In this document: piece after piece, positions 36,497-57,526 of the stretch
Position numbering within the stretch: the first letter of the stretch is position 1
How the letters are laid out: every line of letters begins with the position of its first letter
Virus record (IMG/VR): IMGVR_UViG_3300001335_000125
Coordinates: 1 to 64,000 of that record
Source: a virus
Taxonomy: Duplodnaviria > Caudoviricetes
Strand: one strand, 5' to 3'
Length of the DNA: 64,000 nucleotides
Position numbers and translations under genes: made by a program
Notes under the pieces: generated by a model
What the model was told of the DNA's origin: nothing
The model's input: only the letters and a program-made list of their open reading frames with translations
Databases searched by the model: none

Positions 36497-39400
36497 TCAT
36501 CTAGATGAACTACGATATTTGTATTTCAAACTTTTAGCCAGTTCTTCTGTGTTGTTGGCTTGAACATATACAGGACCTAATACATTGTAATTCTCATTAT
36601 AATTTTCTTCATTAGCTATTTGTTGTTGACCACCACCAGTAAATAGTGCTCCCTGTTGGAACATTAAGTCTGGATAATACTCTGGAATGATATGTTTAAG
36701 AAGTTGTTCACCATATTTTCTATTTGAACCCTCTAGAGGAATAATTGCCTCTGCTCCAGCCTCACCAAACATTCCAAGAGTTGGTGATGAATATATTCCT
36801 CCTTGTGCATTTTGACGTACAGTTACAGATACTCTTATATTTCTTACTTTCTTTGCAAATGTATCTGCAGCACTAATAACTTTTTGAAATAGAAGAATTC
36901 CTCCTACCTTTGCCGAAGTTGCAAGGAACGTTCCTGAATCACTAATAGAGGTTGATACGGATGATGTATTAGAGTAAAATTCAATTCCTGCAGAATCAAC
37001 TAATCCTTTAAATGCAGAACTAGCTTCTGATAATGTTCCTGACATCATACTAACTGCATCCGTGCTTCCTTGTATAAATGATAAGATTGCATTATTAAAA
37101 TCATTAGCATCTACATAGATATTTACATTAACTACTTTACCACCTTGCCTTATATCTGCAGATGCTCCTAATGCTCCGGTACCTCCTTCTTCAGTTGTTG
37201 TAGATGTTACTGGTACCGAGATACCCATACGTGGAGTATATACAGGCTCTTCACCAATTTCTCCACCAGATATTCCAGTTAAAATACCTTCTATGTTATC
37301 TTTTAAGATTGTATAGATGTCTTTAAGAGTAGATAGCATATCATCAAATAATGTGGATTTATTAAGACCAGTCTCTCCATTATCTCCTATTCCTACTACT
37401 CCCCCTTCAGCCATCATTGCTAAGTCTGGGAAGTAGCGGGGTATTATTTGTTGTAAGATGTTCTTACCATATTTGCGGTTAGAGCCTTCTAGAGGTATGA
37501 CAGCTTCAGCACCATCCTCACCAATAATCGCTTGTTGAGGACTGGTTGTTATTCCTCCTTTTGCTTTCGGAATATAATTCTCATCTCCGTATTGAATATG
37601 ACCAAATAATCCAGGAAATATATCAGCGAATGATTGTTGTAAATTATCCCAAAATGATGGGGTACTGGATGCTTTATTATTAAAATATGTTTCTATCTCT
37701 AGTATAACCTTAGTTCTTTCTTCAGCTGGTAATTTATCAATTTCATCCCACAAGTCTTCAAGTGACTTCTTTGCATTATCAGAAGCAGTTATTGCTGCGG
37801 AAGTATCAAATGTAAATGTATGGGTGTTTGTAATCCAATCATATACGTTTCCAAGAAGTCCCGGTTTAAAAAACTTAGCTAATTGTGGATTATCTGCTGT
37901 TGGAAATCCAGCCTCTGATAAACTAGTTTCTAGCTCTGCGTTGATGTCTTCTATCGTTCCTATTGCTTCTGATGCAGATAAATCAAATCCATACTCTTGC
38001 GATAATAATGTTATTAACTCATCTAATTTACTTATTAATCCATCTTCTCCGCCCAATGACTCTGTTAGGGTTCCTATTTTAGTAGCAACCTCATCTAATC
38101 CAGTTGTATCTCGTATATCTGATAGATTAGTTCCTACACTAGATAGCACATCATCTAATGTACCTAGATTAGACATATCTGGTAATGCTAAGATGTTCTC
38201 AAGTGACATTCCTTTTTTAATATCAACACCAAATCTTGACGCTGCAGTTGTTATAAGAGTTGCTGCTATAATTTGTTGTGCTGTAAAATCTTCAACTTGA
38301 TCTTTTCCCTCTCCATACATAGTATTAAGAAAGTCAAGATTTGATGCATACATTGAAATAACACTATTAACTTCTGGAATGTTTGCTCTAAGATTTCTTA
38401 ATGCAAGATTAGTATCCCATACCTCTTCTGCTCCATATACAACCAAATCAATTATTTGTGCATCTTGTAATCCATTTTGACTCCAACTATCAATAACATT
38501 ATCTAATATTTGTAATGTTGATATTGCATCAGTATCTCCCTCTACTCCTAAATTTATTAATAATTCTGGAGTTAATTCTAATTCATCTCCTATAAGATTA
38601 CTAACTACATTCTGAATATTTAAGTCCTCTATACTGGATAAATCTGGTGGTAGAAATCCAGGAAACTCTAATGTTGGAGCATGTATATCCCATAATGAAG
38701 TAAATAAAGGAACTAAGTCAGTATATGTTGATTTTAATTCATCTTCTATATCTTCCTTTACTAATAATTCAACGTTTATTTCTAGGGGAAGTGATTCTAC
38801 ATCTGTCCATGCAGCCATTATCTTTTCTGGTAATGTTTCAAATGCTTCCATTGCTTCGACAATTGGCTCTACAATACCTTCAAATGCATCTGTATTTACT
38901 TCAAACATATATTCCTTTTCAGCAAAATCAGCTAATATATGTAATTCCGAAGAATCTAAAGATGGTATATTTAGACTTCCAAAAGCAATATCAAATGCAG
39001 TTGCAGCATCAACCCCTTCGTCTCTAAGCTCTTTATAATATTCCTGTGCCTCTTCTACTCTTTTACGTTCATTTTCTGATAAATCATCCATAACATTAAA
39101 ATATGCAATGCGTGATTTAAACAACTCTGCCTCAGCAATCTTCATCTCCTTATAACCATCGATTATTTCATCATTAACTAATCCATATTCTGCTAATGCT
39201 TGGAATAACTCATCTAATCTCTTTGGTTGTTCTTGTCTTAGTTTATATAACTTCTCCTCAGCTTCAAGAAGTTTAAGCATTTGTTCCCATAAATCCTTGG
39301 TATTTGCTTCAAACATCTCTGTCCAGTTTGCTTCTACATTTAAAAGATGTGCATGACGAGCCCTTAACTCAGCAAGCTCTTCTTGTTGACTAATTATAAG

Positions 39401-42400
39401 TTGATTGGTCTCATAAATGTCCTGTGCAACATTTAGTCTTTTCTTTTCTACACTTGATAAATCACTCATACTTGTAGTATATGTTTTAGTCTTTTCATCT
39501 AAATCAGTAACCAAGTCACTATTCTCTATTTGTAACTCCATATATCTCCTATTAAGTGATTCATAATTCTCTAATGCAATGGATGCTTCTTCAGAGGTAT
39601 CTCCATATTGTCTCTGTGCAATAAGATATTCATTCAATGCATTATTCACTTCATCTAGTGTCTTAACTTGATTTTCTCTATTTTGATTAAGTTTATACTC
39701 TGCTTCGTCCATATCAATATATGCAATAATAGATTTATCTAGGGATTCACTTGTACTCTTTAACCAATTTATAATTCCTTGTCCAGTCTCTAAGAATTTA
39801 GTTCTATTATCAGCAATATCCTTTTCTATTTCACCTAAACGTTTCATTGCACTAGAGTACTCTTCTGCTGATTCAACTCCCTTAACTTGCATCTTAACAA
39901 TATCCTCTGTAATTCTAACTCTCTGTACTTCTAAATTTGATATGTCTGTAAGTGTTTTTCTATAAGATACTAATTCCCTAGCTCGTTGTCTATCTAATGC
40001 AAGTTCCTCCCTTGATATTCCTATAAATTGTTTAAATGATTCAAATGCATTACCAACTGCTTTTGTTATTCCATCCCAGTTTTCCATAATTGCAGTTAAT
40101 GCAAACATTGCTGCTCCAACTCCTATACTAACTAAAGCAATCTTTAGTGCCTTTGCTGCAACAGTGGCAGCTTTCATTGAAATAGTAGATCCTGTTATAC
40201 TTAGTGTCATTCCTTGAATTCCCAAAGCTAGGGTGTTGGTTAATCCTGTACTGGTTTTAACAATTAAATTCCACACTTTCATTATCTTCCCAGAGATTTT
40301 CGTTGCTATACCATGTGTAACTGTTGCTAGAGTACTGGCTATTGTAGCGAGGGTGTGTTTTCTAGTTACTGTTGTTTGTCCTACTGTTGCTACAGTGCTC
40401 AGATTTTTATTAATTACATCTTTTGCTTGTACATTACTATGAATACTTAATGCTCCTGTCTCTGTTTGGATAGTAGAAACATTTGCTAGTCTTAGTGCTT
40501 GGTCAATTTCTGTATTTTTAAATCCAGCTCGTCTCATACGATTTGCAGTAACTTGGGATGCTATGTTATGAGTCATTGCTTCGTTCTCTATTTCCATTGC
40601 TGCAGCAGTACCTAAATATGTTTTAATTTCTTCCTTACGTAAGGCTTGTCCAAACATTAATTGGGCGGTCTGTATCTTAGATACTGCTATTTCTTTTATC
40701 TTAGCACCAATTAAATCTAATATTGATCTGTGTTCATTCATTGCATACATTGCTGCTACCCGGTGTGCTATAGATAATACAGTAAGTGCTCCAATAATGA
40801 AATAGATTGGACCTCTTAGTCCTTCAAATGATTCTGCAATTATAGTTAAAGGTAATGCAAATAATAAAAGACTTGAAAGGGTTCCGTGTAATGTAGTTTT
40901 AAGTGTAGTTAGTCCGATACTTGCTGCTGCACTATCATATCCTAATTTCCTCATAGCTAATCCTGTTGCTGCTAGTGCTATAGAAAATGAGGCGAATGCA
41001 GGTACTACTGCAAATATAGATGATATAAATGGATTAATAATAACTACCAGTCCTTTGAGACCATCTCCAATAAATCCAATTCCTCCGTAGAGTGATTTCA
41101 TAGATGGTACTACTTCTTGAGTAATTGTAGATGCAAACCAATGAAGAGCAGGAATAATAGCATCTCTAAGAGATAGTGCTGCTTCTTCCATTTGATTACC
41201 CATAAGTTTAAGCTGACTATTCATAGTGGATAATTGTTTCTCTGCTATGGATTCTGTTAGTCCTCCTGTAAGTTCGAGTTGATTACGTGCTCTAGCAATA
41301 GCATCAACCTCATCTATAAGAATAAGTGCTGCTGCTGCAGTACGAGCACGGAAGAATGTTGCTGCATCGGCTGCATCAAATTGTGCAGCACGTAACTTAT
41401 AAAATATATCAGTAAGACTATTTGCATAGGGATTAATATCTGATAATGACAGTCCCATCTTATCAAGAACTTCTGTAGAGTCATCAGTTGGTTTAAGTAA
41501 TTTAGTATAAATCATATTGAGACGTTGACCTGCCTGTCCTGCCTCCAATCCTCTATCATAAAGAACTCCTAAGGTTGCATTAAGTTCATTAAAGTCTTGA
41601 CCTAATTCCCCAGCAATAGAACCAACATATTTATAGGACTCCACTAACTTATCAAGTGTGGCATAAGATGATGTAATAGTTCCCATAAACGAATCTACAA
41701 GTGCTTCTGTATCTTCTGTTTGTAGACCAAATTGCTTCATTGCTTTAGTTACAGCTTGGAATGCAGTATCTAATTCAGAGTTAGTTGCTGCTGCATAATT
41801 AATAATTGGTATTAAATCTTCAAAATCTTTCTTAACAACATCTATACCAGCCGATGCTAAGTTATATAATGCTGATGCTGCAATATTTGCACTATATCTG
41901 GTTTTCTCTCCTATTTCACTAGAGAGATTCATGATAGATTTTACTGCATCATCAAAAGATGCTCCGAGATAACCAGCCACCGAAGCAGTCTCATATGCAG
42001 ATTTCTCAAAATCTATAATGGCAGATATCATACTTGAGAATGCTTGACGAACTGTCATAACTAATTGAACACCAATACTGAATGTTATGTAGTGAATTAT
42101 CTTCTGTGCCATAGATGAAAAGTCTAATAGACCCATAATACCCATCTTATGTGCATCTCTAATATTTATCATAGATTTTACTGTTCCATCTGCCATCATC
42201 TTTAGATTTTGTTCGTAGGCTATTCTTGCATCAGTTGAACCAGCAACAAATTCATTAAATGATTTCTTATAAAAACCTACCTGTTGCTCTACATTTTTAG
42301 CGGATGGTGCTCCAGAAGGAGTCTCTCCTTTAGCCCCGCCTGCGGGTTGTGTTTGTACCTTTACAGGAGTTCCTAGAGTTTCTTGCATCTTAGTCTTAAG

Positions 42401-43516
42401 TTTACCTAATTCACCAGCAAAGTGAGCTTCATCAAAGTGTAGTTTAATTGGTGGTATATTCTCTACCATCTTTTTAAGATCTGATACAGCTGGTTTCTGG
42501 GTCTCTTTTGTTGCTTTGGTTGTTTTTGGTGTTGCATCTATCTCAGTTGCTGGTTTGATATTAAGATTTTGTAAAGCTTGTTGTTGAGCACCTGCAGTGC
42601 CCTGAGCCAATTGTGTGATAGTGTCATATGTTTGTCTTGCAAATCCTAAGATGTTTTTATAGACTTTATCAGCAGTGGATTGAATTTGTAATAGAGCTTG
42701 TTGTTGTGGGGATGTAGTTTCTTTCGTTGTCTTTTCTGTAGTTTTTGATTTTTCCTTAGTTGACTTATTAGTGGTCTTTTGATCTTTATCCTTTAGAGTT
42801 TCAATTTCTTTTAATCTTTGTCTCAAATATTTAGTATCATAGTCCTTTGATAATTCTTTGGATATTCCTGGAGCCTTTCCTAAAGTAACCTCCTTAGCCA
42901 TCATTTCTTGTTTTAGCTGAACACCATCTTTTATAAGTCTATTCATTTCTTGTTGTTGTTTCTCTGTGTATTTTAGTTCTCCATCTTTTCCTTTCTTAAT
43001 TTTATTAAATAAATCCTTTTGGGCTTTTTCATTTGTATTAATATCTTTTTGTAATTCTTTTTTTGTTCTTGGACTCTCTAACCACTTTAATTTTAATTGT
43101 TTATCATTATACTCTTCATTAAGTGCACTCATCTCAGATTGACTAGATTTGATTTGAGAGAGTTGTTTTTTGGAATTTCTTTTAGATGTCTTTAGTGCTT
43201 TATCACCAGCACTAGCTAATTTAGTATCGGATATTTTAGCAAGTTGTTCCATAGATGTTGATACAGAATCAACTACTGACTGTGCTTGGGTTGCTATAGA
43301 TTTTAGAGCCTTATTTATATTTATCGATGCATCATTAATAGATTGTGTGAGGGTATTTAGAGAACCCTTGAAATCTCCACCAGCTATATCTATCTTTAAA
43401 GACTTACTTAGTGATTTTTGTATTTCACCTTTTATCTCTTCTAAATCCGATTTAAGTAAATCTTTGTGGGCTCGAAATTGAACCGAAATGCTACCGACAT
43501 TCATATCATTTGCCAT
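36497..43516 (-). CDS. tail tape measure protein (TP901-like core)
   Basis: ~2340 aa, Ala/Leu-rich helical; FE...ETASVAG, LYNLASAG, L...G...GQAG..L; ATG 43516 has GGAG upstream. Confidence 0.93.
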   Translation of the reverse strand: MANDMNVGSISVQFRAHKDLLKSDLEEIKGEIQKSLSKSLKIDIAGGDFKGSLNTLTQSINDASININKALKSIATQAQSVVDSVSTSMEQLAKISDTKLASAGDKALKTSKRNSKKQLSQIKSSQSEMSALNEEYNDKQLKLKWLESPRTKKELQKDINTNEKAQKDLFNKIKKGKDGELKYTEKQQQEMNRLIKDGVQLKQEMMAKEVTLGKAPGISKELSKDYDTKYLRQRLKEIETLKDKDQKTTNKSTKEKSKTTEKTTKETTSPQQQALLQIQSTADKVYKNILGFARQTYDTITQLAQGTAGAQQQALQNLNIKPATEIDATPKTTKATKETQKPAVSDLKKMVENIPPIKLHFDEAHFAGELGKLKTKMQETLGTPVKVQTQPAGGAKGETPSGAPSAKNVEQQVGFYKKSFNEFVAGSTDARIAYEQNLKMMADGTVKSMINIRDAHKMGIMGLLDFSSMAQKIIHYITFSIGVQLVMTVRQAFSSMISAIIDFEKSAYETASVAGYLGASFDDAVKSIMNLSSEIGEKTRYSANIAASALYNLASAGIDVVKKDFEDLIPIINYAAATNSELDTAFQAVTKAMKQFGLQTEDTEALVDSFMGTITSSYATLDKLVESYKYVGSIAGELGQDFNELNATLGVLYDRGLEAGQAGQRLNMIYTKLLKPTDDSTEVLDKMGLSLSDINPYANSLTDIFYKLRAAQFDAADAATFFRARTAAAALILIDEVDAIARARNQLELTGGLTESIAEKQLSTMNSQLKLMGNQMEEAALSLRDAIIPALHWFASTITQEVVPSMKSLYGGIGFIGDGLKGLVVIINPFISSIFAVVPAFASFSIALAATGLAMRKLGYDSAAASIGLTTLKTTLHGTLSSLLLFALPLTIIAESFEGLRGPIYFIIGALTVLSIAHRVAAMYAMNEHRSILDLIGAKIKEIAVSKIQTAQLMFGQALRKEEIKTYLGTAAAMEIENEAMTHNIASQVTANRMRRAGFKNTEIDQALRLANVSTIQTETGALSIHSNVQAKDVINKNLSTVATVGQTTVTRKHTLATIASTLATVTHGIATKISGKIMKVWNLIVKTSTGLTNTLALGIQGMTLSITGSTISMKAATVAAKALKIALVSIGVGAAMFALTAIMENWDGITKAVGNAFESFKQFIGISREELALDRQRARELVSYRKTLTDISNLEVQRVRITEDIVKMQVKGVESAEEYSSAMKRLGEIEKDIADNRTKFLETGQGIINWLKSTSESLDKSIIAYIDMDEAEYKLNQNRENQVKTLDEVNNALNEYLIAQRQYGDTSEEASIALENYESLNRRYMELQIENSDLVTDLDEKTKTYTTSMSDLSSVEKKRLNVAQDIYETNQLIISQQEELAELRARHAHLLNVEANWTEMFEANTKDLWEQMLKLLEAEEKLYKLRQEQPKRLDELFQALAEYGLVNDEIIDGYKEMKIAEAELFKSRIAYFNVMDDLSENERKRVEEAQEYYKELRDEGVDAATAFDIAFGSLNIPSLDSSELHILADFAEKEYMFEVNTDAFEGIVEPIVEAMEAFETLPEKIMAAWTDVESLPLEINVELLVKEDIEDELKSTYTDLVPLFTSLWDIHAPTLEFPGFLPPDLSSIEDLNIQNVVSNLIGDELELTPELLINLGVEGDTDAISTLQILDNVIDSWSQNGLQDAQIIDLVVYGAEEVWDTNLALRNLRANIPEVNSVISMYASNLDFLNTMYGEGKDQVEDFTAQQIIAATLITTAASRFGVDIKKGMSLENILALPDMSNLGTLDDVLSSVGTNLSDIRDTTGLDEVATKIGTLTESLGGEDGLISKLDELITLLSQEYGFDLSASEAIGTIEDINAELETSLSEAGFPTADNPQLAKFFKPGLLGNVYDWITNTHTFTFDTSAAITASDNAKKSLEDLWDEIDKLPAEERTKVILEIETYFNNKASSTPSFWDNLQQSFADIFPGLFGHIQYGDENYIPKAKGGITTSPQQAIIGEDGAEAVIPLEGSNRKYGKNILQQIIPRYFPDLAMMAEGGVVGIGDNGETGLNKSTLFDDMLSTLKDIYTILKDNIEGILTGISGGEIGEEPVYTPRMGISVPVTSTTTEEGGTGALGASADIRQGGKVVNVNIYVDANDFNNAILSFIQGSTDAVSMMSGTLSEASSAFKGLVDSAGIEFYSNTSSVSTSISDSGTFLATSAKVGGILLFQKVISAADTFAKKVRNIRVSVTVRQNAQGGIYSSPTLGMFGEAGAEAIIPLEGSNRKYGEQLLKHIIPEYYPDLMFQQGALFTGGGQQQIANEENYNENYNVLGPVYVQANNTEELAKSLKYKYRSSSR

Positions 43517-43542
43517 GGTTTGCTCCAATTTCTAATTTTGCA

Positions 43543-43548
43543 TTTAAA
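43543..43548 (-). promoter_or_regulatory. putative TATA box of the tape-measure operon
   Basis: TTTAAA ending 26 nt before ATG 43516. Confidence 0.35.
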
Positions 43549-43577
43549 GGGGTCATACGTGCGATCTGACGAGGGTA

Positions 43578-43601
43578 CCCCTTACCCCTTACCCTTACCC
43601 C
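43578..43601 (-). other. G-quadruplex-forming tract
   Basis: GGGG-TAA-GGG-TAA-GGGG-TAA-GGGG on the minus strand. Confidence 0.7.
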
Positions 43602-43617
43602 TCGGAAAGTATTACTT

Positions 43618-43660
43618 TCGATTCTAGGGTCGTTTCCGTGGATCCTCGTGCATAATTTCG
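43618..43660 (-). repeat. dispersed GC-rich element, copy 3
   Basis: CGAAATTATGCACGAGGATCCACGGAAACGACCCTAGAATCGA (minus strand). Confidence 0.9.
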
Positions 43661-43716
43661 AAGGGGTCTTGATACTTTTCACAGAATTTAAGAAAAATGA
43701 GGAAATAGGGGTAATT

Positions 43717-44034
43717 TTATCCATTTTCGTATATAATATTTATAGCTTTACGTTGGATAATATTTTTGTATCCATAAGACCCACCAAGATTATGCATTCC
43801 CTTCCAGACAACTACATACAAACCTAATGGATCTGTAGATGCTGTTTCAAAGTAATATGAATATTCACCAGTACCATCCCTAGTTGTGGATGCATCCTGT
43901 ACTAGATAAGTACCATCAGGTTTAATAACATCTACAAAAGCTTTGTTACCAGAGGGATCTGTGAGTACATCGTCCATCTTAAAATCAACATTAGTCTTAA
44001 TTGTATTTTGTCTCTCAAAATTTTCTAGTGTCAT
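43717..44034 (-). CDS. Ig-like / BppU N-terminal-like virion protein
   Basis: LTDP...VIKPDG...TG.YSYYF...GLY.V.W pattern. Confidence 0.6.
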   Translation of the reverse strand: MTLENFERQNTIKTNVDFKMDDVLTDPSGNKAFVDVIKPDGTYLVQDASTTRDGTGEYSYYFETASTDPLGLYVVVWKGMHNLGGSYGYKNIIQRKAINIIYENG

Positions 44035-44072
44035 ATTGATTTATTTCCTTTATAATACATAGATAACATATT

Positions 44073-45848: not shown

Positions 45849-46436
45849 CTAACAACACTTACTCCTTAATCTTACTTCATTACCATAATTAGTTTGGCTC
45901 ATATAGAGTTCATTCCCATAGTTAGTTGAACTAATAGATATTTCTCCTGGACTATTACAATCTTCTTCTATTGGGTTGTAACTTACCTCTATTTGAACCA
46001 TAGAGCACTCTACATTATCTCCTGAAATCACCGAACTTATAACAACATCCAAATTGCTTATATCTGTCCATTCCCAACATCCTTCACCAGGTCCACTACT
46101 ATCTTGTGTTATATCGTATACAGTTGTCCAAGCACCGGTTTCGGAAGTAGCAATGTATGGAGATGAAATTATACCCAGATTTGAACCATCAAAATATGGT
46201 CTAAATGTAACTCTTCCAGGAATAAAGAAATATCTTAGGTAAGCTCTTATTCCAACAGTCAATATGTCTCCAATTTGACTATCATAATTGTTACCTATCA
46301 ATGTTTCCATATTTCCGTTTGTATTGGAAACTGCATGGTTACCTAAGTCTCCATCTACCATCCTTGAATAAGAAGTCCAATGACTTTTACTTGAAGGATC
46401 TAAAGACGTATAATGTAAATATAAATTCTCAGTCAT
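45849..46436 (-). CDS. putative virion protein
   Basis: 195-aa beta-rich ORF in the tail region. Confidence 0.6.
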   Translation of the reverse strand: MTENLYLHYTSLDPSSKSHWTSYSRMVDGDLGNHAVSNTNGNMETLIGNNYDSQIGDILTVGIRAYLRYFFIPGRVTFRPYFDGSNLGIISSPYIATSETGAWTTVYDITQDSSGPGEGCWEWTDISNLDVVISSVISGDNVECSMVQIEVSYNPIEEDCNSPGEISISSTNYGNELYMSQTNYGNEVRLRSKCC

Positions 46437-46438
46437 AT

Positions 46439-46783
46439 TTAATCACCTAGATTCATATCACTTTTAGAAAGACAATACATTATTAACCCATTAGTACTAG
46501 CAAGATAAGATAGATAATTCAATTTAATTAATATTGGAGTATCTTTGAGTTCTTCTCTCTTTTCATCACAAAGATATGCTTTGCATCCAAGACATTTAGT
46601 TGTGCATCCAGTATTAGAGTGATATTTACATTCTACTCCACCTGGATAACAACATTTATAATTGTAAGGACAATCCTTACATATTTCACTCTCTTTGAAT
46701 AACTTATCTAATTCTTCATAGAGAAAATCATATAAGAAAGATTTTTGTTCGTTAGTTAGATTCATATGATGAATATACACCAA
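46439..46783 (-). CDS. Cys-rich hypothetical protein (metal-cluster-like)
   Basis: CKDC...KCC...C...GC..KC.GC...LC. Confidence 0.6.
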   Translation of the reverse strand: MVYIHHMNLTNEQKSFLYDFLYEELDKLFKESEICKDCPYNYKCCYPGGVECKYHSNTGCTTKCLGCKAYLCDEKREELKDTPILIKLNYLSYLASTNGLIMYCLSKSDMNLGD

Positions 46784-48962
46784 CCTGTATCATAGCTGTT
46801 CCATATCTATATCCCGCTCCCATCTCAGGAGTAGTAGTGTTACCAGAGTACATAAATCTTATTTCTATATAATCACCAGCATCCGATGATGCTAATGGAT
46901 TTCCTTGTTGTAATGTTGCTGAAGATGTTTTATAGATTGTATCTGCTCCATATAAAGGAAGTGATGATCCTGCTAAAACTTCTACATATAAATCACCTAT
47001 GCCCGTTCCACCAGATCCACATGCATTTGCTTGGTATATATACGCCTTCTTTCCAGTTGGACACTTAAACCTACCTAAATTAATATTCTGATTTGCAGAT
47101 AACATAATATTAGCAATAGAATAAGTCATTGGAGCAATTCCCCTAAATACTTGAGATGAAATTCCATTACTACTAGATACTCCATAAGTATATAAAGTTC
47201 TCCATCTTTTAGATAATGACCCCAAGTCATCTGTATTATCAGTATCCGATATAATGCTTGTATTTATTGATACCGTTCCTAAATTATTCAGATTATTTGT
47301 AGCCACACCTAAATCTAATATAACTTCTGAACAACTTCTACCTTCAATAGTATTTGAATCTGTAAACTTAGCAAAGTCACTTTTTACTGGAGTTCCAGAA
47401 GTATCTACAGTACCTGTATTTGTAGTCCAACCAGAATCATTATTAAAATCTGATAATGTCCACTCACTAACTAACTTTCTCTTTTGTACACCATTATCTA
47501 AATATACTATTTCATCTTCTGAACCAACTATATCACTAGTTCCGTCTGTTAATTCTGTCAAATCTACATTAAATGTAGTTCCATCTAAATCTAATAAAGA
47601 ACCTGCAGTATAAGTAGTATTTGTATAATTACCAGTATGAATATTAGTATCACCTTGATCTACTGTCCAGTCTATATGTTTATTTGATTGTCCGGAATGT
47701 CCCCAAAATGCCACATTCAAATTATGACCAACGGATTGACCAACAGATGATGGATATGCAAGATAACTACCAGATACAGAATTAGTCCAGTTATATGCTG
47801 ATTTTGTTTGAGATGATATTATTGTATAACCAGCAACATCCAATGAAACTCCGGTAGAACCACTAACACCAATAGAGCCTTCAAATGCTTCAAATCCAGT
47901 TCCAGCAGTTAGAGTAGTCCAATTAGTTGGAGTATCAGATATTGCATTAATATCTGTTCTTAAGTTACTAGAAATACTATCAAGAAGAGAACGATTAATA
48001 TTACTACTTCCTGCATAATTGTCATTTAAATCTGCTATTGCTGCTGTAGATACATCACTCCAAGCAACCTCATGGGGGTTATTTGTATTACTACTATGAC
48101 CAACATATTCAAGATATTGATTATGTCCTAATGAAGAAGGATAGTATTCAGAACCATCTAAAACATCCTGTTTACCATCTATTTTACTATCTAAATTAGT
48201 TGATATCTGATAAAGATTAACCCCTGACGCTGAATACCAATTCCAAATAGACTGCCCAGATGTTTTTAAGAAGAAGTTACTAGATACTGTATCTCCTGTT
48301 AATCCACCTACTGCACCAATCTTTGTATCTAATGCACCAGATACAATTTGAATATAGTCATATATTTGGTCTGCTGTTGATAGATGGGTAGTATCTCCTG
48401 CATTTGGTGTAGCGGTATCTACTGCAATAGTTGCTGCACCACCAAATACTTGTCTATCTGAAGTTACGGTTATTGGTGCTGTTGCAGATAATGTTCCTTT
48501 ACTTTCACCAATATCCGTTAAATCAATACTATGAGGATTTCCAGTTGTAGTATCAGCATGTGTTTTTCCTGATTTTGCATTAGATGATATAGTTGTTCCA
48601 CCAAGTGCAACTTCTACATCACTTGTAGAATCGTATTTGGCATCTAATTTAGTCTTAAGCTGTGCAGACGCAGCATAATCTGTAACACTTATTTCATTAG
48701 TGGAGAATGTGATTCCTAATCCAGCAGTTGCATTAGTTTCAGTTAAATCTAATTTATCAGCAGTTATTTGTTGATCATTTATAGATATATATGACTCACC
48801 AGTTAAAGTGACCCTTGGATGTGCTAATGCTCCAGATGCTGATAACTTATTACTCGAATTAAGATACCAATTATATACTGTACCAAAATTATCACTAGAT
48901 GCATACCAATTTGATAACTTCTGAGATGAGTTATCATACCAAGTATCTAATATATTAACCAT
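46752..48962 (-). CDS. tail fiber-like protein, 3' part of a frameshift-broken gene
   Basis: fiber-like motifs (GNPH, HSSNTNNPH, YTAGSLLDLDGTTF); the frame is open 12 codons upstream of the ATG and matches a repeat in 49246-49929. Confidence 0.7.
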   Translation of the reverse strand: MVNILDTWYDNSSQKLSNWYASSDNFGTVYNWYLNSSNKLSASGALAHPRVTLTGESYISINDQQITADKLDLTETNATAGLGITFSTNEISVTDYAASAQLKTKLDAKYDSTSDVEVALGGTTISSNAKSGKTHADTTTGNPHSIDLTDIGESKGTLSATAPITVTSDRQVFGGAATIAVDTATPNAGDTTHLSTADQIYDYIQIVSGALDTKIGAVGGLTGDTVSSNFFLKTSGQSIWNWYSASGVNLYQISTNLDSKIDGKQDVLDGSEYYPSSLGHNQYLEYVGHSSNTNNPHEVAWSDVSTAAIADLNDNYAGSSNINRSLLDSISSNLRTDINAISDTPTNWTTLTAGTGFEAFEGSIGVSGSTGVSLDVAGYTIISSQTKSAYNWTNSVSGSYLAYPSSVGQSVGHNLNVAFWGHSGQSNKHIDWTVDQGDTNIHTGNYTNTTYTAGSLLDLDGTTFNVDLTELTDGTSDIVGSEDEIVYLDNGVQKRKLVSEWTLSDFNNDSGWTTNTGTVDTSGTPVKSDFAKFTDSNTIEGRSCSEVILDLGVATNNLNNLGTVSINTSIISDTDNTDDLGSLSKRWRTLYTYGVSSSNGISSQVFRGIAPMTYSIANIMLSANQNINLGRFKCPTGKKAYIYQANACGSGGTGIGDLYVEVLAGSSLPLYGADTIYKTSSATLQQGNPLASSDAGDYIEIRFMYSGNTTTPEMGAGYRYGTAMIQVGVYSSYESN

Positions 48963-48998
48963 ACTAGATACTGTGATATATCCGGTTGCACCAGACCA

Positions 48999-49258
48999 TC
49001 ACCATGAGAATGAGTTGCTAATGCAAATACTCCAGTTGATGCTGATATATAAGCACTATGATACTTTGAACCAGATATTAATAGATGTTGTTGAGCTAGA
49101 GTTCCAGAAATGTTATGAATACTTAAATTGTTTTTATGTGATTGGAAAGCTCCAGAGCCTGCATAGTCATCATCAATAGATGATTTTGTAAAATGAATAG
49201 AGGAGTCTCCTATGTGAGAAGTGACTGAGTCACTTAAGGAATTTCCTAATGAAGATGT
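48999..49258 (-). pseudogene. middle, out-of-frame coding segment of the fiber gene; not in ORF track
   Basis: TSSLGNS...SAYISASTGVFALATHSH matches SKAYISTSTGVFALSTHSH in 49246-49929. Confidence 0.75.
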
Positions 49259-49929
49259 AAATCATCTTTAGCACCAGTTTCAACATCTGCCCAAACTACA
49301 TTATGTGGATTATCTTCATTTATTATATGACTATGAAATGCTCCCGAGTTAGCATAATTATCATTGAGAGCAGAAGTTAAATCATCTTCACTAGAATATG
49401 TTTCTGAGTAGAGTGCTATAGATGCACTAGCATATGCATTAGATAACTTAGATGAAGAGTTTGAATACCAATTTAGTAAAGTATTTACATTACTTGATAC
49501 TGATATATATTCCGATGCTCCTGACCATAATCCGAATTCATCGTGAGAATGGGTAGACAAAGCAAATACTCCTGTAGATGTTGATATGTATGCTTTTGAG
49601 TATTTATTAGATGAATTACTATACCATATATTTAATGCATGAACTAATGATGAAACTGGATAAAACTCAGATGCTCCTGACCATGCTACATCCGTTGTTG
49701 AAGTTTCTGCCCATGTTAATTTATCTGTAGAGTCTTTATACTGTAAAAAGTATCCATCACTTGGTGAATTGGATATCTTAAGTTGATATTCTTGGAGAGA
49801 GTTTCCGGAAATGGTACTAGATGGTAAATATCCACCTGCTCCACTTGCACCTATAACTTGATCCGCATCTACCATCCCAACAAAACCATCACTTTTAGGA
49901 GAAATCTTAGATATTAGTTCTATAGGCAT
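49246..49929 (-). CDS. tail fiber-like protein, 5' part of the frameshift-broken gene
   Basis: repeated WSGASE and NWYSNSS.K motifs; ends abruptly at DDLHLH*. Confidence 0.7.
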   Translation of the reverse strand: MPIELISKISPKSDGFVGMVDADQVIGASGAGGYLPSSTISGNSLQEYQLKISNSPSDGYFLQYKDSTDKLTWAETSTTDVAWSGASEFYPVSSLVHALNIWYSNSSNKYSKAYISTSTGVFALSTHSHDEFGLWSGASEYISVSSNVNTLLNWYSNSSSKLSNAYASASIALYSETYSSEDDLTSALNDNYANSGAFHSHIINEDNPHNVVWADVETGAKDDLHLH

Positions 49930-50594
49930 AAGTCATTACCTCCATTCTTTTGGTATTTGTAAATGTCAGTAAGATGTTGGAATATCTCTTCTAATGAGTG
50001 TGTATATTTTAATCTATTACACTTGTCACAACAAGGAATACAGTTCTCTTTAATATATCCAATTTCATTATTCAATCTATCAATTCCAGTATATTTATTA
50101 CCATTTGTATATTTGCCACATATATAACACGGTTTAGAAGTTATATTATCAAATTCTTTTATTGTTAATCTAAATTCTTTTCCCCTTTTTTTGGCACTGG
50201 ACTTGCAATGACTATACCTAAATGATAAATCAAACTCAATATTATCATATTTATTATGATAATTCTGGGATGCAATTTCATTACAGCACTCTTTACACTC
50301 TGTACACAATCCATCATGTTTTGATTTATTTTTATAAAACTTATCCAACGATAAAATCCGTCCACATCTCCAACACTTTCTTTTAGTTCTGTCTTTATTA
50401 TATGTTGTAGTTACTTCTTTTAGACATCCACAACTTTTTGTACGCCCCATTGTTAGACTGCATAATCTAACTGTAATTATATTTCCACAATCACAAATAC
50501 AATCAAATGCTCTACGGTTAAACTTATCATAATTTTCCTTTAATATAGTCAATTTACCAAACCTATCCCCTTTATTAACTATTAATTTATTCAT
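49920..50594 (-). CDS. free-standing His-Me finger (HNH-like) endonuclease
   Basis: GDRFGKLTI...CICDCG...TKSCGC N-terminal module; GIDRLNNEIGYIKENCIPCCDKCN. Confidence 0.82.
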   Translation of the reverse strand: MNKLIVNKGDRFGKLTILKENYDKFNRRAFDCICDCGNIITVRLCSLTMGRTKSCGCLKEVTTTYNKDRTKRKCWRCGRILSLDKFYKNKSKHDGLCTECKECCNEIASQNYHNKYDNIEFDLSFRYSHCKSSAKKRGKEFRLTIKEFDNITSKPCYICGKYTNGNKYTGIDRLNNEIGYIKENCIPCCDKCNRLKYTHSLEEIFQHLTDIYKYQKNGGNDLCL

Positions 50595-51880
50595 GTTGTA
50601 GTCACCACCGTAGAACCCAGATTAGAGTTCTCACTACGCCATACATAATAATCTTCACTAAATCCATTAGCATTAGTTACAGATACTGTTTCTGGAGATT
50701 CAAAGCCCCCCTCAAAGCCTCCAACCCAAAACGTAACCGTTCCTAATCTAACAGGAAATGCAAATAACATATATTCCCCAGCACCCGTTGTGATAGCACT
50801 CCATGTTTGTGTATTATCATTAGTTATAGTTGAAGTTGATAATCCCTCTACATCAGCCTCCGAGAAACTGGATGTTGTAGTTGTCTTTCCATAATATAAA
50901 TAGTTTCTAAGACTTACATCAGTTCTGAATGTATAATTTCCTAGGTTTGCTATTGTAGATGCAAATACTTTATAATTTTCTGTAAATCCTGCAGAGTTTG
51001 TTAAAGAAACTGTTTCTGGAGCATTCATTGCAACAACAAAACCATTAAAATCAAAGTCACAGTCTCCATCATCTTCATAATCATTACCATAATCAAGTGT
51101 TGTATAGGATGCTGGATATGCAAAAACTAGATACTCTCCAGCACCAACATTTATAGAACCCCAACTTTGAGTAGTATCATTAGATATGGTGCTTCCAGCA
51201 AGTGATTCAACATCCGCCTCTGAGAAACTTGAACCTTTATTTAATTTACCATAATAGATATAATTTCTGAAATAGATGGATGTTTCTGTAGTTGAATCTG
51301 TATCGGTAGCACAATTAGCACTTAATCTAAATCTAAGATATTGGTCTTTAGATGCAGGATAGTTGATATCTCCTTCATCGTTAGTACCAGTTGTATAGGT
51401 AGATGCAGTCATAGAACCAACTTTTGAGTATGCACCACCATTATTAGACATCTGTACCCAAGCACCATCTGGTGGACCATTATTATAAGTTGCAGAGAAT
51501 GTTATTGTACTATCAGACTTCCATACTCCAGTACCTATTAATTGAGTTGTAGATTCTCCATCACTAAAAGATTCTATGGAAAATTCAAATGTAGTGTTAT
51601 ATGCTGCTGGTACCCAATTAGATCCATTCCATTTTAATACCTCATCTCTTGCTGGAGTATCGGATACGGTATCAACATCATTAAGTTTATTTATAGATGC
51701 TGTAGTAGATATATAAATATTATTAAGCCAATTAGTTAATTGTGAAGAAGGAAAATGGATATTTTTATTTGATGAATGAGAAAAATAGTTGCCACTTACC
51801 CATTCTATAGTATTAGCCATATTAGTGAATTCTGTAGCATCTATCAAGTCATTAGGTAATTTTGAATCTTGCCATGACAT
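50591..51880 (-). CDS. virion fiber/spike-like protein with an internal domain duplication
   Basis: VLKWNGSNWVP; two copies of RNY.YYGK...FSEADVE...GAGEY..FA.P...PETVS.TN..GF.E.Y. Confidence 0.75.
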   Translation of the reverse strand: MSWQDSKLPNDLIDATEFTNMANTIEWVSGNYFSHSSNKNIHFPSSQLTNWLNNIYISTTASINKLNDVDTVSDTPARDEVLKWNGSNWVPAAYNTTFEFSIESFSDGESTTQLIGTGVWKSDSTITFSATYNNGPPDGAWVQMSNNGGAYSKVGSMTASTYTTGTNDEGDINYPASKDQYLRFRLSANCATDTDSTTETSIYFRNYIYYGKLNKGSSFSEADVESLAGSTISNDTTQSWGSINVGAGEYLVFAYPASYTTLDYGNDYEDDGDCDFDFNGFVVAMNAPETVSLTNSAGFTENYKVFASTIANLGNYTFRTDVSLRNYLYYGKTTTTSSFSEADVEGLSTSTITNDNTQTWSAITTGAGEYMLFAFPVRLGTVTFWVGGFEGGFESPETVSVTNANGFSEDYYVWRSENSNLGSTVVTTT

Positions 51881-52002
51881 CTTTATAGTCCTTATATTAA
51901 TTACTTATAATTATTTAAAATACATTTAACGAAAAGATATTATAATACATTTCCAAGAGTTTATTGAAATAAAAACTGTAACGTCTATTCATTAGATTTG
52001 TA

Positions 52003-52614
52003 TTATATTATCTCCGAATCTCCAGTCTCTTTAATATTTAAAAGAAACTTTGAGTTTCTACCGGATATCGTTTCTTGATACCCGATTATGTAGTCGATCC
52101 ATCGTTTCTCACGAGAAGATCTATTAGATGTTATACGATTTCTCTGTAGATGTCCTTTACATACTGGACATAATCCATTGGAGGTTTGTTCAAAGTCATA
52201 CTTCTTATCGCATCTATTACAATAGAAGTAGTCATGAGATTTACAATTTGGGCATATTGGAGATGGATATTGTGAATGAAATTCCATAGATGAGTTATAC
52301 TGAAATTCTGTGTTACAATCTTTACAGAAATGAAATTCTTCTGTTTGAATGAAGTTCTGACGATAATAGATTAGTCTTCTATCATCTATGAGATTAAGTG
52401 TGAAGGTTGGAAGAAAAGATACTGATTTAACATGTATCTTATCTTTATTAATTTCTTTCTCCTCTTCATATGTGAAGGGAGTTAATACAAATTTTATTAA
52501 TTTATCTTGATTAATTTTATTAAATGAATTTGGTTGTCCTTGAGTATATTGATGAAGTTCAGTTCCATCATTATAATAGCAAATCCATTTATATACTATA
52601 GGTCTTATATTCAT
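52003..52614 (-). CDS. hypothetical protein with inserted double Zn ribbon
   Basis: CKDC, CPNC, CNRC, CPVC. Confidence 0.7.
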   Translation of the reverse strand: MNIRPIVYKWICYYNDGTELHQYTQGQPNSFNKINQDKLIKFVLTPFTYEEEKEINKDKIHVKSVSFLPTFTLNLIDDRRLIYYRQNFIQTEEFHFCKDCNTEFQYNSSMEFHSQYPSPICPNCKSHDYFYCNRCDKKYDFEQTSNGLCPVCKGHLQRNRITSNRSSREKRWIDYIIGYQETISGRNSKFLLNIKETGDSEII

Positions 52615-52689
52615 AGAAATCTCCTAATGGGATGTTTACATCACTGTATCGTCCATTTTATTGGATAGATACTCCAGAAAGTTTCACAT

Positions 52690-53649
52690 TTAGAAATTAA
52701 CAATCCTATTACATAAATCTTCATCTGACATTTGTTTCATATCCGATTCCCATATAACAAGAGTCTTAAATCCATATTTTCCATAGTGATCTGATTTTGT
52801 CTTAATATCTTCCTCTTTATGCCAATAGTTACCAAACAACTCAATTAGTTTCTTTTCTCCATTACAATTTACAAAATCTGGGTTCTTTCCATCTATCCAA
52901 AACTTAAAATCACCAGTATACTTGTATGGAAGATTATATTTCTTACATATATCAATTACCCGTTGTTCTATACTCGTTGGATTATTTGAATTTGAAACTA
53001 TTGAACTAAAGAACTTATCTTTTGATACTTTCATCCATTCCCAAGGTTTCATTCCTTTATTCCACCCAGCAATTAGACAAGTATTTTCGTGAGTTCTGTG
53101 GTATTCTCTTGCACCTTCGTTCATTTTTTGTAGGATTATTGAATCATCCTTCATCATTTTTATTCTGGACTCTTTAAGATGTTGTTTGTGCTTATTTGTA
53201 AGTCCGTGAGTTCGATAAGAATGAGGTCGTTTGAGTTTTATATTTCTACACTTATCACCAACAGATAAATCAGTTCTGTCTAGTATTTCTGCTATTTCTT
53301 TGTAATATAATCCTTCGTAGAAAAGAAAAAGTAATGAAGAAAGATTTTCATCTGTCCACATAACATCATTTTTGTGGAGACCTAATCGATTTGCTTTGAT
53401 ACATATTGCTTCTTTATCTCTATTTATTTTGGATAGTATGTACTCCCATGGTTTTGTTGAATATACTCTTCTTAGGATTTCTAATTCTTTGTTAGTCCAT
53501 TCACATCCTTTAGATAGATTTAATTTATTTGCCTTTATATAAATTGAGTATTCTGTCCTATTTAATAGAGCTGATATCTCATTTATTGGAAGAATTTGAT
53601 AGTTTTCTTTTAGTGTTTCTACTTCCTCATCAGACCACAATTTACTCAT
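52690..53649 (-). CDS. Vsr/DUF559-like PD-(D/E)XK endonuclease with three N-terminal W(T/S)..E...L helical repeats
   Basis: WSDEEVETL, WTNKELEIL, WTDENLSSL; PDFV...IELFGNYWH...GFKTLVIWE. Confidence 0.78.
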   Translation of the reverse strand: MSKLWSDEEVETLKENYQILPINEISALLNRTEYSIYIKANKLNLSKGCEWTNKELEILRRVYSTKPWEYILSKINRDKEAICIKANRLGLHKNDVMWTDENLSSLLFLFYEGLYYKEIAEILDRTDLSVGDKCRNIKLKRPHSYRTHGLTNKHKQHLKESRIKMMKDDSIILQKMNEGAREYHRTHENTCLIAGWNKGMKPWEWMKVSKDKFFSSIVSNSNNPTSIEQRVIDICKKYNLPYKYTGDFKFWIDGKNPDFVNCNGEKKLIELFGNYWHKEEDIKTKSDHYGKYGFKTLVIWESDMKQMSDEDLCNRIVNF

Positions 53650-53655
53650 ATAAAA

Positions 53656-54342
53656 TTATGCCTCCGAAAATGTCCATGTTGCAGTTTTATCTTCTTTATT
53701 TCCCGCAGTAGCTCCACTACCAACTAACACTTGAGTTACTATACAATAGGTTCTTCCAGTTGTTGCACCTAATGCTTGACCAGATTGTACCATATATGCA
53801 TTTTCTAGACTATCAAAGTGTGTTATAGATACCATACCACCTGATGCTGGACTTGCTGCTCCAAGATAGAAAGCATGACCATTTGTTGCTGTAGAAATTC
53901 TATATCCACAAACACCCTCTGTACCTTCTGCTAAATCATAATTTCCTGAAGGAAATCCTTGTGTTAATATTTTTGCATTTGCAACAGTTGCAGATGATAT
54001 TCCTATATAGAGTCCAGGACCGATACCTGCTCCTGCCCATCCTGCTCCTGCTAGAGACCAGTCTGAATTAGGACTAGTTGTCCATGTTTGATAATACTTA
54101 ACATCTTTGATATATGTATCTGGTGCAACGGTACAATTAAGACAATGAGTTACCCAATAAGAGCCACTAATACCATTTCCTACCGTTGGTATTGGAATAG
54201 GATATGTAGTTAATGAACTGTCATATTGATCTGATGTCATATATCGAGTACCAGATTTACTTGCTACTGCATTAGAATCTCTAGTGTGAAATGTCCCTGG
54301 TTCTGCTCCAGTAAGTTGTTCGATTACTATTGTTGCAACCAA
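53656..54342 (-). CDS. putative virion structural protein
   Basis: TTG start with AGGTGA upstream; Gly/Ser/Thr-rich; follows the tail chaperone. Confidence 0.65.
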   Translation of the reverse strand: MVATIVIEQLTGAEPGTFHTRDSNAVASKSGTRYMTSDQYDSSLTTYPIPIPTVGNGISGSYWVTHCLNCTVAPDTYIKDVKYYQTWTTSPNSDWSLAGAGWAGAGIGPGLYIGISSATVANAKILTQGFPSGNYDLAEGTEGVCGYRISTATNGHAFYLGAASPASGGMVSITHFDSLENAYMVQSGQALGATTGRTYCIVTQVLVGSGATAGNKEDKTATWTFSEA

Positions 54343-54384
54343 TTATAATTCACCTATCCCTAAAATATAACATAAATACATACA

Positions 54385-54585
54385 TTAATGTCTACGTCTT
54401 GCTTTTGCTTTACGTTCTGCGTCTTTGTGTGCTTTTGCTTCTTGTTCCAATTTATGTATTATCATCCGTTCCATAAAAGATATACCTTCTCGGTTTCTTC
54501 TACGGGCGTATCCTAATTCATCTGGTGTACAAGATAGTAATTTACACACTTCGAACTCTAGATATCCTAATCCCGACTCAACGAA
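54385..54585 (-). CDS. +1-frame extension of the tail assembly chaperone (GT-type product); not in ORF track
   Basis: 66 open codons FVESGLGYLEFEVCKLLSCTPDELG...ARRRH*, entered at TCC TTT CGT TGA. Confidence 0.8.
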   Translation of the reverse strand, partial: FVESGLGYLEFEVCKLLSCTPDELGYARRRNREGISFMERMIIHKLEQEAKAHKDAERKAKARRRH

Positions 54586-55051
54586 AGGATTTTAAGTCTT
54601 CTTCAGGAACTTTATTACCAGATTGGAAAGATAATATAAGTTCTGATATGAAGTTTTGTAATGTTTCGAATGAGACTTTAGACTTCCAGAATTCTTCATC
54701 TAGATGTTTATCAACAGACAATTCAGCAGCAATCTTATTTAAATCACCATATACTTCTAGAAGTCTTTTATTAGACTCCTCAGCATTGGATGATTCGAGA
54801 TTACTTGCTTCAATAGACAGTTTTAGAATCTTCAGAAACTCCTCCTGATTCGGCTTTTTAGCTAGAACTGCTCTCCTTGTATCAGGGGAGGTGTTAAAAG
54901 AAACTTTAAGGAAATCTTCATTAAAGTCTCTTTCTAGAAGCTCTCGAGTAGCTATTTGACGAGCAAAGTCCTCGTCTTTCTTAGACTTACCATCATCAAT
55001 CTTCTTTCTGAGGTTATCCATTTTTTCTTTTGGGGTTTTCTCTTCGGCCAT
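54578..55051 (-). CDS. tail assembly chaperone
   Basis: directly follows the tail tube genes; charged helical protein; overlapping downstream frame. Confidence 0.8.
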   Translation of the reverse strand: MAEEKTPKEKMDNLRKKIDDGKSKKDEDFARQIATRELLERDFNEDFLKVSFNTSPDTRRAVLAKKPNQEEFLKILKLSIEASNLESSNAEESNKRLLEVYGDLNKIAAELSVDKHLDEEFWKSKVSFETLQNFISELILSFQSGNKVPEEDLKSFR

Positions 55052-55085: not shown

Positions 55086-55544
55086 TTAACAGTTTGATAT
55101 ATACTTTCCACCATGAGATCCATCACCATCTGTAATGGTTATCTGATATGGAGTCATCACAGAATAATCAACACTACCTTCAGTAATTGTATCTGCATCA
55201 CCAATGGATATATCAAATCCAGTGACAGCACAAGATACTAAATAGAAATGTAGTGAATTTGAACCACAGCTACCAGAAATTCTTACACGATTACCATTAA
55301 TTAATGCACCAATCAGGTAGTTACTACCATCTATTTTACAGTGGGTTAAGGATCCTTCTGCTGAAACTGACCCGCCGACTCGATAGTTTCCAGTCTCTCC
55401 AACTAATTCCTGTTCAACTACACCCTTATCGAATGTAAGACTGAAATCAGAAATAGCAAAGACACTATCCTCTACTGCAGTCGTTCCTGAGTATATAAAG
55501 ATTGCTGCATCTTTACCTGTATAGGTTGTTGGTGTTCCTGCCAT
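55086..55544 (-). CDS. tail tube protein paralog 2
   Basis: SDFSLTFDKGVVEQELVGE...EGS...SIGDADTITE; position in the tail operon. Confidence 0.78.
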   Translation of the reverse strand: MAGTPTTYTGKDAAIFIYSGTTAVEDSVFAISDFSLTFDKGVVEQELVGETGNYRVGGSVSAEGSLTHCKIDGSNYLIGALINGNRVRISGSCGSNSLHFYLVSCAVTGFDISIGDADTITEGSVDYSVMTPYQITITDGDGSHGGKYISNC

Positions 55545-55558
55545 ATTTTCTTACCTCC

Positions 55559-56026
55559 TTAATCCTCCATATGACCAGTGTCTAAAGTAATGGTGACTTG
55601 ACTTGGATGCATAACAACCCAATCAATGGATGCTTCTGTGATTGTATCTGCATCTCCGAGTGATATATCATATCCTGTAATTGCACAAGATCTAAAGTAC
55701 CAACTTATTCCCGTTTCAGAGTTTCCGGTATTTCCTGAGATAGTTATATATTTATATGAATCTCCACCAAACATATTGTCTAATGCTTCATCTGCTCCAG
55801 ATGCTGCAAATTTACAACATGTATAAGAGCCTTCTACTGATAGACTACCAAATGTAAAGTAGTTACCAATTTCTCCAACAAGCTCTTGTTCAACAACCCC
55901 TTTATCGAATGTGATACTAAAATCAGATATTCCATAAAGTGAGTGAGTTGACATAGTTCCTGTTGCAGCTCCTGCAGCATGAGATTTTATTGCAATGTCT
56001 GCACTTGAACCTGTTACTGTTGCCAT
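55559..56026 (-). CDS. tail tube protein paralog 1
   Basis: SDFSITFDKGVVEQELVGE...EGS...SLGDADTITE; follows the terminator gene. Confidence 0.78.
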   Translation of the reverse strand: MATVTGSSADIAIKSHAAGAATGTMSTHSLYGISDFSITFDKGVVEQELVGEIGNYFTFGSLSVEGSYTCCKFAASGADEALDNMFGGDSYKYITISGNTGNSETGISWYFRSCAITGYDISLGDADTITEASIDWVVMHPSQVTITLDTGHMED

Positions 56027-57286: not shown

Positions 57287-57526
57287 TCACATACCATGTA
57301 TTTGTTTGTGACATGATTCACATAAAGTTATAAGATTGTTAGTATTGTGAGAGCCACCGCGACCAACTGGAATTATATGATGACAATGTGGATGAGTTAA
57401 ATGAGTTCTGCCACACATTTGGCATGTATAGTTATCTCTCTTAAACACATACCAACGAATTCTATTCCAATTCTTTGGGTATCTCTCATCTTCAAATCCG
57501 TCTGGTCTTCTTGGTCTTCTATACAT
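57287..57526 (-). CDS. small HNH endonuclease
   Basis: KRDNYTCQMCG, HCHHI, NLITLCESCH. Confidence 0.9.
   Translation of the reverse strand: MYRRPRRPDGFEDERYPKNWNRIRWYVFKRDNYTCQMCGRTHLTHPHCHHIIPVGRGGSHNTNNLITLCESCHKQIHGM

Follow-up and report, generated by a model that had tools for sequence, protein, structure and literature searches.

The window analysed here is a stretch of 64,000 nucleotides (positions 1 to 64,000) of the IMG/VR virus record IMGVR_UViG_3300001335_000125 (Duplodnaviria; Caudoviricetes), a viral contig of 73,890 bp with a GC content of 32% that is estimated to be 64% complete. On its minus strand, the window carries a G-like open reading frame (ORF) of 157 aa, a candidate tail assembly chaperone (TAC) gene, whose 3′ end overlaps a T-like coding region in the +1 frame. 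We hold with high confidence, on comparative grounds, that a programmed +1 ribosomal frameshift at UUU_CGU giving a G-T fusion is the best explanation of this arrangement. The first-pass annotation of the window had proposed a +1 shift on UUU_CGU, with tRNA-Phe slipping from UUU to UUC and giving chaperone products of 157 and 221 aa, and this proposal receives strong comparative support from 53 distinct homologous loci. The aligned loci directly show the site, the reading frames, and the conservation of both, and they reveal selection at the amino-acid level on the +1 frame from the site onwards. The elements of the locus in the window are the following:

54578..55051, minus strand: G-like ORF, 157 aa, candidate tail assembly chaperone, 0 frame (ORF list and 30 homologues)
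54581..54589, minus strand: putative shift site UCC_UUU_CGU, composed of TCC (54589-87), TTT (54586-84), and CGT (54583-81) (conservation in 53 loci)
54578..54580, minus strand: 0-frame stop codon TGA, end of the short product (its position relative to CGT varies among relatives)
54385..54585, minus strand: T-like extension, +1 frame, 66 codons plus TAA (peptide conserved from codon 1)
54592..54594, minus strand: TAA closing the +1 frame upstream (not conserved in relatives)

All genes in this part of the window lie on the minus strand, and the end of the 157-aa ORF was confirmed there as AAA (54592-90) TCC TTT CGT TGA. The layout of the three frames was likewise as first described. The -1 frame closes promptly, with a stop 4 codons past the TGA, and the +1 frame opens after the TAA at 54594-92, reading N P F V E S G L G Y and onwards to the TAA at 54387-85, a run of 66 codons if the Phe codon TTC is taken as the first. 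The absence of an ATG until codon 38 of the extension was also correct, a GTG at codon 13 having been left unmentioned. The fused product with one base skipped has 221 aa, and the upstream TAA confines the shift to 4 codons in the window genome.

To place the locus among its relatives, DNA was collected for 11 homologues, for 63 loci from an alignment-based scan of IMG/VR, and for 4 loci from GTDB genomes, and the removal of duplicates left 53 distinct homologous loci with 37-97% protein identity to the 157-aa protein of the window. An IMG/VR scan using the single 157-aa protein as the query, as opposed to the alignment, gave no match. With the 157-aa protein, a search of a large protein collection retrieved 30 homologues, which are 141-170 aa long and show 41-100% identity to it, and a tblastn search of the G-T fusion against 50,697 phage records from isolate genomes returned no match. 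The stretch is free of indels in two public assemblies; the only differences are substitutions, in a strain that is 95-99% alike. The public runs containing the stretch are freshwater, aquatic, and sediment metagenomes, and all of them are DNA.

The alignment of homologous loci, which had been suggested as a check on the proposal, gave a clear result. TTT was present in 53/53 distinct loci and was followed by CGT in 52/53 and by CCT in one, with TTT_C shared by 53/53, and TTTCGT was the sole six-base run conserved at 98% or more within the 90 nt examined. The +1 frame was open in all 53 loci, for 61-82 codons, and the -1 frame closed after 2-29 codons. The codon preceding TTT was TCC in 35/53 loci, AAA in 11, ACC in 5, AAG in 1, and AAC in 1; UCC, which had been included in the proposed site, thus stands as the commonest preceding codon and is not an obligatory one. 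The 0-frame stop directly followed CGT in 37/53 loci and lay one codon further on in 8, two codons in 7, and seven codons in 1. Being displaced by 1-7 codons in 16/53 loci, the stop is not part of the conserved signal, and the suggestion that it aids the shift was not borne out. Upstream of the site, the +1 frame is open for 2-20 codons in the relatives, and, judging from the same alignment, the upstream +1-frame stop likewise lies outside the conserved signal. In the alignment of the 30 homologues of the G-like protein, the C-terminal S-F-R is nearly invariant and the residues just before it vary. The very end of a protein is not usually kept in this way, and the pattern suggests that the nucleotide sequence itself is constrained. 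The single locus with CCT (L010:1357-1362) represents a natural TTT_CCT variant that keeps only UUU_C, with S-F-P-stop in the 0 frame and F-L-K-S-G... in the +1 frame; it comes from a single 1.5-kb contig, and a sequencing error is possible.

The peptide encoded by the +1 frame is conserved from its first residues, the alignment of the extensions giving the pattern F-V-(E/K/N)-S-G-x-G-x-L-E-x-x-x-C. Over codons 3-12, the mean pairwise amino-acid identity was 0.62 in the +1 frame versus 0.28 and 0.31 in the other two frames, and the mismatch rates at codon positions 1, 2, and 3 of the extension were 0.40, 0.22, and 0.58, respectively, the order third > first > second being the pattern of coding sequence. 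Codon 4 specifies Ser in 51/53 loci, by AGY in 30 and by TCN in 21, and Gly7 is encoded by all four of its codons; Gly7, Glu10, and Cys14 are invariant as residues. The switching of Ser4 between AGY and TCN, the variety of Gly7 codons, and the invariance of Glu10 and Cys14 form a combination that only protein-level selection can produce. According to these substitution patterns, purifying selection acts in both frames. An in-frame G-T fusion was not found among proteins of 121-387 aa, nor among the 51 clusters matching the T profile in a search of 1.8 billion representatives.

Several other routes to the +1-frame product were weighed against a shift at UUU. One of them, in the manner of prfB or Ty3, moves the +1 shift downstream by one codon, so that tRNA-Arg occupies the P site and the stop codon has entered the A site; the junction would then be ...SFR-ESGLGY. 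The 37 loci in which the stop directly follows CGT would suit such a shift, stops being classic +1 stimulators, and locus L004 aligns equally well under this model. However, the loci with displaced stops, in which the 0-frame products end in R-R-K-stop (L011), R-E-stop (L004), or R-K-V-R-D-R-P-A-stop (L027/L029), retain the +1 residues V-E/K-S-(G/N) and do not conserve their 0-frame residues. Since the +1 peptide is kept and the 0-frame tail past CGT varies, the shift should take place at or before CGT and not at the stop. A shift at a stop lying 1, 2, or 7 codons after CGT would replace the conserved V-E/K-S-(G/N) start of the extension and, in L027/L029, would remove G-I-G-Q-L-E altogether; moreover, tRNA-Arg cannot re-pair on GUU, and the invariant TTT would be left without a reason. 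The prfB-/Ty3-like shift on the stop was therefore rejected as highly unlikely, the +1 peptide being conserved from TTT_CGT despite the displaced stops. A ribosome slipping back by two bases (-2), or a polymerase whose slippage loses or inserts bases in the mRNA, would also arrive in this frame. Because -2 and +1 shifts lead into the same frame, the frames alone cannot separate them, and the length of the joined coding sequence (CDS) of the halovirus HSTV-2 fits either. Yet the codon two bases back from UUU is CCU or AAU, neither of which pairs with tRNA-Phe; the run of T comprises only 3 bases, far fewer than in known transcriptional slippage sites; and no length heterogeneity was observed across the DNA assemblies. 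These routes are accordingly considered very improbable.

A different possibility is that the extension is a separate small protein, translated from its own start or by termination-reinitiation after the G stop. Gene callers have indeed reported stand-alone T ORFs of 37-85 aa in many metagenomes, the GTG at codon 13 is available in the window, and a +1-frame ATG lies just upstream of the motif in the haloviruses HFTV1 and HRTV-4. The called starts, however, scatter over many different positions of the T profile, and conservation at the amino-acid level extends to residues that precede any start, the invariant G7 and E10 among them. Among the 51 complete frames, the first ATG, GTG, or TTG falls anywhere between codons 2 and 42, 25 have no start within the first 14 codons, and 7 have none of these codons at all; in addition, no Shine-Dalgarno (SD)-like element is conserved before codon 13. 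We assign very little probability to independent initiation. That the locus is nonfunctional, either through a sequencing or assembly error or as a decaying gene, has nothing more in its favour than the origin of the window as a metagenomic contig; the same layout recurs in 53 distinct sequences from many samples, selection is purifying in both frames, and an independent assembly shows no indel, so that the comparative data refute this reading and leave it a negligible chance.

Under the preferred explanation, a +1 shift at UUU_CGU, a small fraction of the ribosomes translating the 157-aa gene would slip one base forward at the site. UUU is the sole invariant codon that allows a tRNA to re-pair one base forward, namely from UUU to UUC, and peptidyl-tRNA-Phe on the P-site UUU would re-pair with UUC, the better match for its GAA anticodon. 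The ribosome would then read GUU GAG UCG ..., adding the T-like domain of 65 residues and producing a G-T fusion of 221 aa with the junction ...LKSF-VESGLGY... beside the major product of 157 aa; the tryptic junction peptide predicted for a +1 shift at UUU is SFVESGLGYLEFEVCK. By analogy with gpG and gpGT of lambda, both forms may cooperate in tail assembly, the G part binding the tape measure protein and the T part recruiting tail tube subunits. We infer from the comparative pattern that the ribosome shifts here, and the efficiency of the shift, the roles of tRNA-Phe and CGU, and the binding partners are inferred likewise.

No stimulatory element was recognized around the site. RNAalifold predicted 0 conserved pairs 3′ of the site in 11 loci, and the single-sequence fold of the window downstream of the site had a z-score of +0.88. 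Upstream of the site, GAGGAG-like strings resembling SD elements occur in some loci, none of them conserved. Some observations weigh against the frameshift or against the chaperone function attached to it. The conservation of TTTCGT is partly forced if F-R in the 0 frame and F-V in the +1 frame are both selected as protein. In the viral genome, TTT_CGT occurs in frame 3 times versus 2.6 expected, and this lack of avoidance elsewhere implies that the motif alone is weak or dependent on its context. CGT accounts for 91 of the 758 Arg codons (12%) in the viral genome, AGA being dominant, which makes it uncommon and not very rare, and the codon at the halovirus sites is CGC, which haloarchaea use commonly; such usage does not establish a "hungry" A-site codon. 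Furthermore, none of the fold and protein language model (PLM) matches of the G-like protein to TAC families reaches significance, and the tape measure gene is found 11 kb downstream of the G/T pair, not adjacent to it as in canonical G/GT loci. Two in-frame TTT_CGT sequences were recorded in other genes of the same contig beyond the window, within 65636-68020 (minus strand; GGA_TTT_CGT_GGG) and 72937-73491 (minus strand; GAT_TTT_CGT_AAT).

The assignment of the pair as tail assembly chaperones is somewhat less certain than the frameshift itself and is supported by good but indirect evidence. No Pfam or PHROG family was found for the G-like protein. Its predicted model (pLDDT 74.7) gave the HK97 tail assembly chaperone 2ob9 as the first Foldseek match, with a non-significant E-value of 0.67, and direct comparison with 2ob9 yielded a VIA Z of 5.3 and a root-mean-square deviation of 4.6 Å over 100 aligned residues, a result tied with other helical proteins. 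For the G-like protein, most of the named Atlas clusters lying nearest are TAC families (scores 0.83-0.88), which serve as leads only. The T-like extension matched phrog_9001, annotated as "tail assembly chaperone", in 7/11 members (best E-value 6.8e-4). The position of the G/T pair, directly after two tail tube paralogues, is consistent with this role. The tail genes concerned are the following:

55559..56026, minus strand: tail tube protein, paralogue A, 155 aa (predicted model and Foldseek)
55086..55544, minus strand: tail tube protein, paralogue B, 152 aa, directly upstream of the G-like ORF (ISDFSLTFDKGVVEQELVGE motif common with paralogue A)
36497..43528, minus strand: tape measure protein, 2343 aa (phrog_1533 and more than 12 other tape measure families, best E-value 3.8e-44)

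The model of paralogue A (pLDDT 71) matched in Foldseek the SPP1 structure 6yeg (E-value 3e-3), a DSR2-bound tube (probability 0.99), T5 pb6, and Hcp, and some members of its family match the tail proteins phrog_290/365. Paralogue B is conserved in all loci, and a sequence search of the PDB with the tube profile gave only chance-level matches. A complex prediction for the T domain with both tube paralogues returned a score of 0.00, for which controls were not run and which counts neither way. None of the related loci lacks either of these adjacent paralogues with their common motif; both proteins may be components of the tube, or one of them may have another role in the tail.

The arrangement has counterparts in haloviruses. 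Dyall-Smith et al. reported in 2020 that the HF1-group haloviruses need a +1 shift between two chaperone CDS, and they proposed a site at TTT-CGC, which lies in a perfectly conserved 15-bp stretch and was likened to the TTT_CGN of amalgaviruses and of influenza A PA-X (PMC7230728). Similarly, the review by Atkins et al. (2016) described the expression of the HSTV-2 chaperones as "very likely +1" (PMC5009743). In HSTV-2, we confirmed the motif AAG TCC TTT CGC (K-S-F-R) eight codons before the stop, with the +1 frame open for 99 codons beyond that stop. The HF1-group viruses (Hafunaviridae) are like the window virus in having two chaperone CDS after the tail tube gene, a +1 relation between them, and no conventional slippery heptamer. 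In contrast, they are haloarchaeal myoviruses of about 65% GC with CGC instead of CGT and with the stop 7 codons past the site, and the window belongs to an uncultured clade of 32% GC. HSTV-2 differs as well in that its tape measure gene is adjacent to the chaperone genes and not 11 kb away. The G and T proteins of the window and those of HSTV-2 gave an hhalign probability below 1% with E-values of 0.11-0.17, so their homology is not significant.

A comparable layout was found in HFTV1, HRTV-4, and HRTV-29 (Haloferuviridae), in which the gene after the tail tube gene ends in ...D-G-F-R-K, encoded by an in-frame GGG_TTT_CGC_AAA. Their +1 frame encodes a conserved peptide of 48-59 aa with an FAKS/T start (FAKS..GLEYAL..D.T.KT..E.H). 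The arrangement was noted at the following positions:

L080:9162-9306: HFTV1
L082:3973-4138: HRTV-4
L083:11863-12040: HRTV-29

These viruses share the G/T layout of the window virus, and HFTV1 and HRTV-4 differ from it in the +1-frame ATG mentioned above. Comparison of the G and T proteins of the window family with the Haloferuviridae proteins gave hhalign E-values of 0.09-0.18, and homology was not significant here either; the shared site may stem from common descent or from convergence. In the existing annotations, HFTV1 gp36/gp37 and HRTV-4 genes 64/65 appear as separate hypothetical proteins. The GenBank entry for HRTV-29 gp63 gives a -1 shift, and the frame entered in this way lacks conservation across the three viruses. 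A +1 shift at TTT_CGC looks more likely. No paper discussing a frameshift in these Haloferuviridae genes was found in the literature searched.

When compared to lambda gpG/gpGT and the conserved tail-assembly frameshift of long-tailed phages (Xu, Hendrix and Duda 2004), the window virus likewise has the pair downstream of the tail tube gene and an extension without its own start. The shift differs, since lambda uses a -1 shift on the heptamer G_GGA_AAG (PMC5009743), whereas a +1 shift on UUU_CGU is proposed for the window virus. Another close counterpart is the site of influenza A PA-X. UUU_Ynn sequences are shift-prone, and UCC_UUU_CGU is the PA-X site itself, at which the replacement of UCC by AAA lowers shifting by 40-70% and does not abolish it, and which operates at a very low shift level and has no evident stimulator (PMC5009743). 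The same nine nucleotides are present in the window and in 35/53 relatives, the direction is +1, a downstream stimulatory structure is absent, and re-pairing of tRNA-Phe from UUU to UUC is expected in both systems. PA-X and the UUU_CGN sites of amalgaviruses and others (Firth et al. 2012; Nibert et al. 2016) differ in that they involve eukaryotic ribosomes, RNA viruses, and a CGU codon that is rare in the host, whereas the products in the window virus would be structural assembly factors. The resemblance to PA-X is one of mechanism, not of descent.

The first-pass annotation had pointed to the PA-X signal in a probably archaeal DNA virus. The novelty implied was too high, considering that such a signal had already been proposed for the HF1-group haloviruses (PMC7230728, PMC5009743); the locus is a well-supported further example and not the first of its kind in proposals on archaeal viruses. 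The present comparison adds a large clade of very different composition (32% GC) that has the same signal with a much deeper comparative support, deeper than for any other +1 site so far in the chaperone of a tailed virus. Seen alongside the halovirus cases, the clade suggests that UUU_CGN serves ribosomes of very different kinds as a minimal +1 signal. A broader reading, which we regard as possible but rather doubtful, is that +1 shifting at UUU_CGN is an ancestral, lineage-wide route to the long chaperone in archaeal tailed viruses, covering the Hafunaviridae, the Haloferuviridae, and the present clade. If this were true, the uncultured 32% GC clade would be archaeal, and UUU_CGN would work on archaeal ribosomes for the reason that it works on eukaryotic ones in PA-X. 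The +1 signal would then be nearly universal and independent of structure, and Archaea would have a first conserved +1 recoding site accessible to experiment. A review published in 2021 gives fucA1 (-1) as the only programmed frameshift experimentally shown in Archaea, with no +1 case proven (PMC8211752). HFTV1 with Haloferax and HF2 with Halorubrum are cultured systems suitable for testing. Finally, the extension has been called as assorted small ORFs and, in one GenBank entry, through a -1 annotation into an unconserved frame, which indicates that annotation pipelines miss this class of genes.

Regarding the host, the best matches of the capsid protein were haloarchaeal tailed viruses at approximately 25% identity, followed by large Bacillus phages, and its nearest isolate relatives were the Haloferuviridae HFTV1, HRTV-4, and HRTV-29. 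An archaeal host is plausible in view of these capsid relatives; the earlier description of the virus as "probably" archaeal goes beyond the evidence. The scan of GTDB genomes gave 4 matches (L076-L079) in metagenome-assembled genomes (MAGs) labelled Saccharibacteria, Desulfatibacillum, Actinomycetota, and Planctomycetota. These matches fall in four unrelated bacterial phyla and look like mis-binned viral contigs, and the labels were rejected as hosts. One MAG relative, QNBZ01000001 (26,938 bp), agrees with an IMG/VR viral contig in length and match coordinates and probably duplicates that record. No tRNA genes were found in the window, and no rRNA match was obtained on the whole contig.

The interval between the G/T pair and the tape measure gene (43529-54384) is occupied by about 11 ORFs, three of which match endonuclease families, two of them weakly. 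Among the ORFs of this region, the one at 52690-53649 has only weak HNH and transcription-regulator matches, the one at 49920-50594 has an endonuclease VII/HNH match, and those at 50591-51880 and 49246-49929 are repeat-containing and fibre-like. Further upstream of the tube genes are located genes encoding a tail completion protein, a head-tail adaptor, the capsid protein, and scaffold proteins, as well as a large ORF split by an intein, for which only LAGLIDADG and Hint matches were obtained. A small HNH gene (57287-57526) is situated between the head and neck genes.

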